Below, piece by piece: positions 1 to 188 of a stretch of 7,115 nt of DNA (its first letter is position 1; each line of letters starts with the position of its first letter). The notes below the pieces were generated by a model. It was given only the letters and a program-made list of their open reading frames with translations. It had not been told where the DNA came from and searched no databases. Where the stretch lies: IMG/VR virus record IMGVR_UViG_2690316210_000014; one strand, 5' to 3'. Position numbers and translations under genes: made by a program. The stretch is from a virus. Lineage: Duplodnaviria > Heunggongvirae > Uroviricota > Caudoviricetes.

Positions 1-36
1 CATCATACACTAAATCAGTAAGTTGGCAGCATCACC
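1..36 (-). mobile_element. IS1 terminal fragment: left inverted repeat, outer end at position 36; the element body lies beyond the window start
   Basis: Reverse complement of 1-36 reads GGTGATGCTGCCAACTTACTGATTTAGTGTATGATG, which I recognise as the first 36 nt of IS1 (left end). The window opens inside the element, so only the terminus is visible. Confidence 0.8.
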
Positions 37-188
37 CCGCCACAGAACAATTATTGCTTTTGCCGTTGATGACAATAAAGTTTTTATCGCAGGCGTATAC
101 CACGGTGGGCAAATCTATGAAACCGATTTTTTATCCAGTGCACCGTAAAACCCCCATCCTTCAGGGCGTGGCGGATATCAAACTTTGG

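Follow-up and report, generated by a model that had tools for sequence, protein, structure and literature searches.

When an IS1 end lies beside a restriction-modification (R-M) pair and the replication genes of a prophage, the question arises whether it marks a local disruption, one arm of a mobile unit carrying the R-M genes, the displacement of phage DNA to another part of the chromosome, or the border of a deletion. This question is posed by a 7,115-nucleotide stretch of DNA (the window, in what follows) from the Caudoviricetes record IMGVR_UViG_2690316210_000014. A preliminary description, made from the sequence alone, had proposed that the IS1 either delimits a deletion of distal prophage DNA or forms part of a composite unit, and that the prophage may be defective. 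On the evidence assembled below, we consider it about 90% probable that the window comes from what is left of a lambdoid prophage in a Shigella sonnei-type chromosome, at the Qin (ydfJ) locus, and that its junction with IS1 is the scar of an IS1-associated interstitial deletion.

The IS1 copy and the toxin gene beside it

Elements of the IS1 family are about 768 bp long, possess imperfect terminal inverted repeats of about 23 bp, and encode in the insA-insB' frames the InsAB' DDE transposase; a simple IS1 insertion is flanked by an 8- to 9-bp direct target-site duplication. The outer end of an IS1 had been placed at position 36 of the window, and sequence comparison bears this out: positions 1 to 36, which read GGTGATGCTGCCAACTTACTGATTTAGTGTATGATG as the reverse complement, are identical at 36/36 bases to the IS1 left end (IRL; blastn-short E = 1.3e-15), and no further IS1 fragments are present in the window. 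The sequence past position 1, which we infer for the source record, was read from eight near-identical public chromosomes (4.8 to 5.0 Mb; L003 to L006 and L008 to L011), which match the window at 99.9% without a break across the IS1 junction. This copy, IS1-B, is complete (768 bp) in all eight, spanning 11236-12003 in L004, and its insA/insB genes are transcribed leftwards, i.e., away from the R-M genes. Both terminal inverted repeats (GGTGATGCTGCCAACTTACTGAT and GGTAATGACTCCAACTTATTGAT) are present in L004 and match at 18 of 23 bases, and the element is 99.5% identical to the IS1A annotated by RefSeq in E. coli G3/10. Its domains are the InsA Zn-ribbon, HTH_Tnp_IS1, and DDE_Tnp_IS1; the transposase calls, at 11291-11988 in the near-identical genomes L003 and L008 and hence beyond the window, are PF03811, PF12759, and PF03400.

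The preliminary description had advised looking beyond position 1 for the other IS1 end and for a target-site duplication. The eight chromosomes supply the former as part of the full-length copy, and none of the eight loci has the latter: the element is bordered by CTGTGGCGG at IRL and by CATATAACA at IRR, the junction reading ...ATTGTTCTGTGGCGG / IS1 / CATATAACAAAACAT... in every case. The missing duplication leaves the identity of the element as IS1 untouched; the IS1-B copy is now a deletion or recombination junction.

The 152 bp at positions 37 to 188, which separate the IS1 end from the endonuclease stop and begin with CCGCCACAG (37 to 45), are as long as first described. The preliminary description gave this distance correctly but missed that the stretch is not a spacer. 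Positions 38 to 148 of the plus strand are the last 36 codons and the stop of a 103-codon ParE/RelE toxin gene, and their translation, RHRTIIAFAVDDNKVFIAGVYHGGQIYETDFLSSAP followed by the stop, is identical at 36/36 positions to residues 68 to 103 of the intact 103-aa ParE of L007 and L001. The reading frame is incomplete, comprising codons 68 to 103 only, and codons 1 to 67 together with the parD antitoxin gene are absent, with IS1 in their place. IS1-B lies inside parE, after codon 67, and most of the 152 bp is not intergenic; only the last 40 bp is (Table 1). The flank retained in the window is collinear with the intact parE-parD of L001, L002, and L007 right up to the junction: the DNA alignment extends to ...TCTGTGGCGG, after which the window-type sequence enters IS1, whereas the relatives continue with parE. 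The intact ParE homologue of L007 is recognized by PF05016 and the adjoining ParD by PF03693, and RefSeq annotates a ParD/ParE pair in two E. coli genomes. The 40-bp spacer is unchanged in relatives without the IS1, and a terminator scan of window positions 1 to 400 returned no terminator-like site between the two convergent genes.

A weak promoter-like match (positions 23 to 51, plus strand; TTGGCA, a 17-bp spacer, and AACAAT; 9/12) straddles the IS1 end and its flank and is directed into the parE remnant, antisense towards the endonuclease gene. Promoter-like matches are no more frequent than expected (2 found versus 0.7 +/- 0.9 in shuffles), and this one is probably due to chance.

Table 1. 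Coordinates of the features of the window and simple IS1 insertions at or near the ydfJ-ydfI spacer of E. coli strains
Feature	Window position	Strand	Target-site duplication	Basis or location
IS1 left terminus (IRL and adjacent bases)	1..36	-		36/36 identity to IS1 at L004 11236-12003
parE 3' remnant (last base of codon 67, codons 68-103, stop)	37..148	+		Identity to intact ParE C terminus
Spacer between convergent parE' and endonuclease stops	149..188 (40 bp)	.		Read from sequence
BsuBI/PstI-family type II restriction endonuclease, 360 aa, intact	189..1271	-		PF06616 (9e-45), PF17728 (1e-30)
N6-adenine DNA methyltransferase, 610 aa, NPPY motif, intact	1268..3100	-		Eco57I (PF07669), N6_Mtase (PF02384)
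Surviving early/replication module	3315..7108	-		Pfam and gene order shared with related E. coli prophages
IS1 of G3/10			TTTTATTCA	Spacer; flank begins 8 bp upstream of S. sonnei junction
IS1 of 720632			ACAAAACA	Spacer; flank begins 6 bp downstream of S. sonnei junction
IS1 of ZH142			GAGCTGCGC	ydfJ 3' end, ~62 bp upstream of S. sonnei junction

The R-M cassette and the surviving early module

The endonuclease gene is untouched by IS1. Its stop (TGA, i.e., TCA on the plus strand) occupies positions 189 to 191, as had been described, and its start is overlapped by 4 bp by the methyltransferase gene. The identical endonuclease, with most of its cluster, is assigned by NCBI to Shigella sonnei under the name BsuBI/PstI family endonuclease, and the exact sequence occurs in several thousand assemblies (4192 index blocks). 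Among 5,426 complete E. coli genomes, the cassette is present in two, FDAARGOS_943 and VL7S7, neither of which has an IS1 at the parE position. Both match the window from base 37 on, at ~96% where aligned and over 83% and 68% of the window, and in both the match begins within a gene annotated as a RelE/ParE toxin, which is convergent with the endonuclease gene and follows a ParD gene. Megablast searches with the cassette (window positions 37 to 3300) retrieved no match among 72,556 plasmids or among 50,697 phage records, and a 44-base string spanning the junction had no match in the genome contig collection searched. In most related E. coli prophages, similarity to the window does not start before about position 3304 (region ~3304-3330), and the R-M genes are lacking; the R-M pair and the neighboring parDE therefore behave as an accessory cassette. 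This cassette is rare in complete E. coli genomes and common in S. sonnei assemblies.

The replication module comprises a small Zn-ribbon ORF, DUF977, DUF1627, a DnaC/IstB-like loader, a replisome organizer, and YdaT. The Zn-ribbon match of the small ORF is weak and below the Pfam threshold, and the 348-aa ORF has no Pfam match, being called a replisome organizer solely from the RefSeq annotation of relatives. Neither the ORFs nor the Pfam searches disclosed late, lysis, or structural genes in the window, which agrees with what had first been reported for the region between the replication module and the IS.

Two in-frame deletions were observed in this module. In the loader gene (4914-5564, minus strand), 96 bp (32 aa) are missing at window positions 5199-5201 relative to eight other S. 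sonnei-type genomes. The deletion immediately follows the Walker A motif (GKTGTGKNHLAAAM/GEKF) and has a 3-bp microhomology (GGT) at its borders; it looks like further strain-specific decay of the module. In the replisome-organizer gene (5571-6617, minus strand), 24 bp (8 aa) are missing at ~6030-6060 relative to other S. sonnei-type loci, converting PEADSAYALKADSGAV to PEADSGAV; this deletion is sited between short repeats encoding ADS.

The chromosomal flank and the origin of the junction

On the IRR side of IS1-B, the sequence is chromosomal and not that of a phage. Positions 12004-20225 of L004 align with the E. coli K-12 chromosome (NC_000913.3) from 1,630,961 down to 1,622,742, with 98.75% identity over 8.2 kb. 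In K-12, the alignment sets in between ydfJ, whose stop is 41 bp behind this point, and ydfI, whose start is 48 bp ahead; the genes that follow are ydfI, ydfZ, rspR, ydfG, dcp, ydeJ, ydeI, dgcZ, and mgtT. At its late-gene end, the cryptic K-12 prophage Qin has ydfJ as its neighbor, and the remnant agrees with Qin both in order and in orientation.

This collinearity ends at a third direct IS1 (IS1-C; L004 20226-20993), which is without a duplication and adjoins the K-12-like sequence exactly at the mgtS/mgtT boundary; past it, a gene for a glycosyl hydrolase of family 1 is found instead of ydeE. This points to another IS1-bounded rearrangement 8.2 kb from IS1-B.

The locus lacks ydfJ, parD, codons 1 to 67 of parE, and all genes for Q, lysis, packaging, the head, and the tail. 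The corresponding side of the intact relatives encodes first ParD, DUF968, RusA, Q, four tRNAs, holin, lysozyme, Rz, and an HNH protein, and then terminase, portal, protease, capsid, and tail proteins. In E. coli FDAARGOS_943 it measures ~33 kb between the junction position and the end of the prophage on the potB side, and ~27 kb when the IS elements of that strain are left out; the 27 to 33 kb is the size in a relative and not a measured loss, and serves only as a comparison because the ancestral prophage may have been partly decayed already before the deletion. In the eight matching chromosomes, no Q, lysis, terminase, head, or tail genes were found past IS1-B, which is directly followed by ydfI. 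Since the late-region genes are gone, the prophage is, judging by gene content, defective and would be incapable of lysis, packaging, or virion building, as had been suspected.

These data bear directly on one rival reading, namely that IS1 simply inserted in parE and that the rest of parE, parD, and the late genes continue beyond it, with only a local disruption as the outcome. IS1 has certainly inserted in this manner nearby: a second copy (IS1-A, below) shows a perfect 9-bp duplication, AAACGGTTG, in L006, L009, and L010, and three E. coli strains have simple IS1 insertions next to ydfI. At IS1-B, however, CTGTGGCGG is not duplicated, and the far flank, beginning with CATATAACA, is in all eight chromosomes the ydfJ-ydfI intergenic region followed by ydfI, ydfZ, rspR, ydfG, and dcp. 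We rejected simple insertion in view of this chromosomal far flank and the lack of a duplication, and regard what probability it retains as negligible. The two outcomes that had been named in advance as refuting a deletion, an element other than IS1 and a simple insertion with phage genes continuing beyond it, were both tested, and neither occurred.

That the missing block was moved rather than lost, through an IS1-mediated inversion or translocation that left the late genes beside another IS1 elsewhere in the chromosome, would be in keeping with the many IS-associated rearrangements that Shigella genomes show (PMC8072062), and IS1-C and the L004 version of IS1-A are likewise without duplications. 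Against this, the sequences on either side of IS1-B are arranged and oriented as they would be in a Qin-site prophage from which an internal block had been taken out, whereas an inversion would break the collinearity on one side. Moreover, the identical full-length ParE is found on 64 contigs versus at least 1000 for the endonuclease, and no S. sonnei appears among the names listed for that ParE. Relocation of the block is thus unlikely on the basis of the collinearity and the ParE contig counts, and we would give it a very low probability.

Composite transposons of the Tn9 type consist of two IS1 copies in direct orientation with cargo between them, and the search for a second copy, which the preliminary description had likewise advised, identified IS1-A outside the window. 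It is a full copy at ~960-1727 of L004, ~2.3 kb past the right end of the window (position 7115), in direct orientation and 9,508 bp from IS1-B. Two full-length direct IS1 elements hence bracket a 9.5-kb segment containing the R-M pair, a structure like that of Tn9 that could in principle transpose, and draft assemblies present the segment as contigs of ~9 to 10 kb. The structural half of the idea of a composite unit is therefore correct, but several observations speak against mobilization, i.e., that the unit delivered the R-M genes to this site or can move them. In contrast to Tn9-type elements, the outer flanks form no unit duplication (they are AAACGGTTG or other sequences on the left and CATATAACA on the right), one arm has a duplication of its own, and no second location is known. 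From its private duplication it follows that IS1-A arrived separately. The segment is collinear with ordinary prophages that have the same gene order without IS1, and it occupies a known prophage site, oriented as expected. In all S. sonnei-type loci the IS1-segment-IS1 unit occupies one context, and, as noted above, its cassette is absent from the plasmid and phage records searched and occurs without this IS1 in the only two complete E. coli genomes that have it. On the strength of the missing unit duplication, the single context, and the unmatched cassette, we rejected delivery by a composite transposon; nothing indicates that the unit ever moved, its transposition as a whole finds no support, and the reading is highly improbable.

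The outer flank of IS1-A varies: it is replaced in L003, L005, L008, and L011, and yet another flank is present in L004. In L005 and L011 it is a molybdopterin oxidoreductase gene, which we take to be ynfE/ynfF-like. These changes look like separate, later, lineage-specific secondary deletions or rearrangements.

The interstitial deletion accounts for both sides of the junction. As both flanks are collinear with a prophage at the Qin site, an internal block has been removed, and the combination of a full-length IS1, no duplication, and chromosomal DNA beyond it argues that IS1 delimits the deletion of the distal prophage, the first of the two possibilities raised at the outset. A full-length IS1 now connects codon 67 of parE directly with the chromosomal ydfJ-ydfI intergenic region, and the proposed event would have removed ydfJ, parD, two-thirds of parE from its 5' end, and the entire region for nin/Q, lysis, packaging, head, and tail; left over is an immobile remnant with immunity and replication genes and an intact R-M pair. 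As to the molecular route, we infer two candidates. A single IS1 may have undergone intramolecular replicative transposition and thereby deleted the adjacent DNA, or homologous recombination may have taken place between direct IS1 copies situated in parE and in the intergenic region. Either route yields exactly the observed product, and the present data do not tell them apart. No intermediate genome, with an IS1 and a matching duplication either in parE or at CATATAACA in the intergenic region, was found.

Which of the two flanks received the original insertion can likewise be judged only indirectly. A query spanning the IS1-ydfI junction was matched over at least 80% of its length in 12 of the 5,426 genomes, mostly in two separate pieces, and three of these were examined closely. 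E. coli G3/10, 720632, and ZH142 (L014, L015, and L016) have independent simple IS1 insertions at or near the ydfJ-ydfI spacer with 8- to 9-bp duplications (Table 1), and in each strain the IS1 is oriented like the S. sonnei copy. This suggests that the AT-rich spacer is a local hot spot for IS1. Given these independent nearby insertions, it is plausible that IS1 first inserted in the spacer and that the deletion then extended into the prophage, although they are a weak pointer to the order of events.

Past position 7115 of the window, at 2668-3152 in L003 to L011, an apparently intact pair of a PaaA2 antitoxin and a ParE toxin lies beside a repressor gene; with the R-M pair counted, the remnant has two addiction-type modules. 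One may conceive that loss of parD would be survivable only with parE inactivated, so that selection would favor an end point inside the toxin gene. Easy loss of the 9.5-kb remnant by recombination is to be expected, as it lies between two direct IS1 repeats, and it may persist in S. sonnei through the R-M and PaaA2-ParE pairs. We consider it a speculative and rather improbable generalization that addiction-type modules influence where the deletion ends, whether the remnant is kept, and which prophage fragments persist in IS-driven genome reduction, with the ydfJ-ydfI spacer as a true IS1 hot spot.

Relationship to known systems and significance

Adjacent deletions caused by IS1 are textbook knowledge, the classic work on them, in the gal region of E. 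coli, reportedly being that of Reif and Saedler from 1975. The locus described here resembles those deletions, and also the loss of Shigella genes through IS elements (Hawkey et al. 2020, PMC7373316), in that IS1 is kept, its flank is replaced, no duplication is present, and the adjacent DNA is lost. There is no difference in kind; what is local are the end points, one in parE and the other in an intergenic region recurrently hit by IS1. No other IS is as numerous in S. sonnei as IS1 (PMC7373316), and both gene disruption and deletions in Shigella have been attributed to IS elements (PMC7373316, PMC8072062).

The closest counterpart at the same site is Qin of K-12, which has the same orientation and is also a defective lambdoid remnant with a toxin-antitoxin pair between its replication and Q regions; at the DNA level, the two are ~90% identical over dicB-ydfE and ydfA. 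Qin differs in keeping Q, lysis genes, nohA, tail-fibre fragments, and ydfJ and in having relBE-hokD in place of parDE, whereas in the S. sonnei remnant nothing distal to parE is left, but the R-M pair and a full replication module, both lacking in Qin, are present. Other prophages, too, are known to carry BsuBI/PstI systems, as exemplified by EcoGIII of Stx2a phages (PMC3893438), which belongs to the same Pfam family and is similarly an accessory cassette located within the early region of its lambdoid prophage. The endonuclease of the window is just 27 to 28% identical to the Stx2a-phage enzyme, and so CTGCAG specificity cannot be assumed for it.

IS1-associated deletions, prophage decay, and the expansion of IS1 in Shigella are well established (PMC7373316), and the importance of the present case beyond correct annotation is small. 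The analysis contributes the parE pseudogene, identifies exactly which chromosomal sequence is its partner at the junction, and records that IS1 has used the ydfJ-ydfI spacer repeatedly. For annotation, its value is that the sequence beside the endonuclease gene is to be recorded as a truncated parE pseudogene. For the organism, it documents one more IS1-driven loss, of ydfJ and ~30 kb of phage DNA, in an S. sonnei-type genome. The event is ordinary genome decay in S. sonnei, of a kind already understood, and the R-M pair, residing in a dead prophage remnant, would as a consequence not spread by phage induction.
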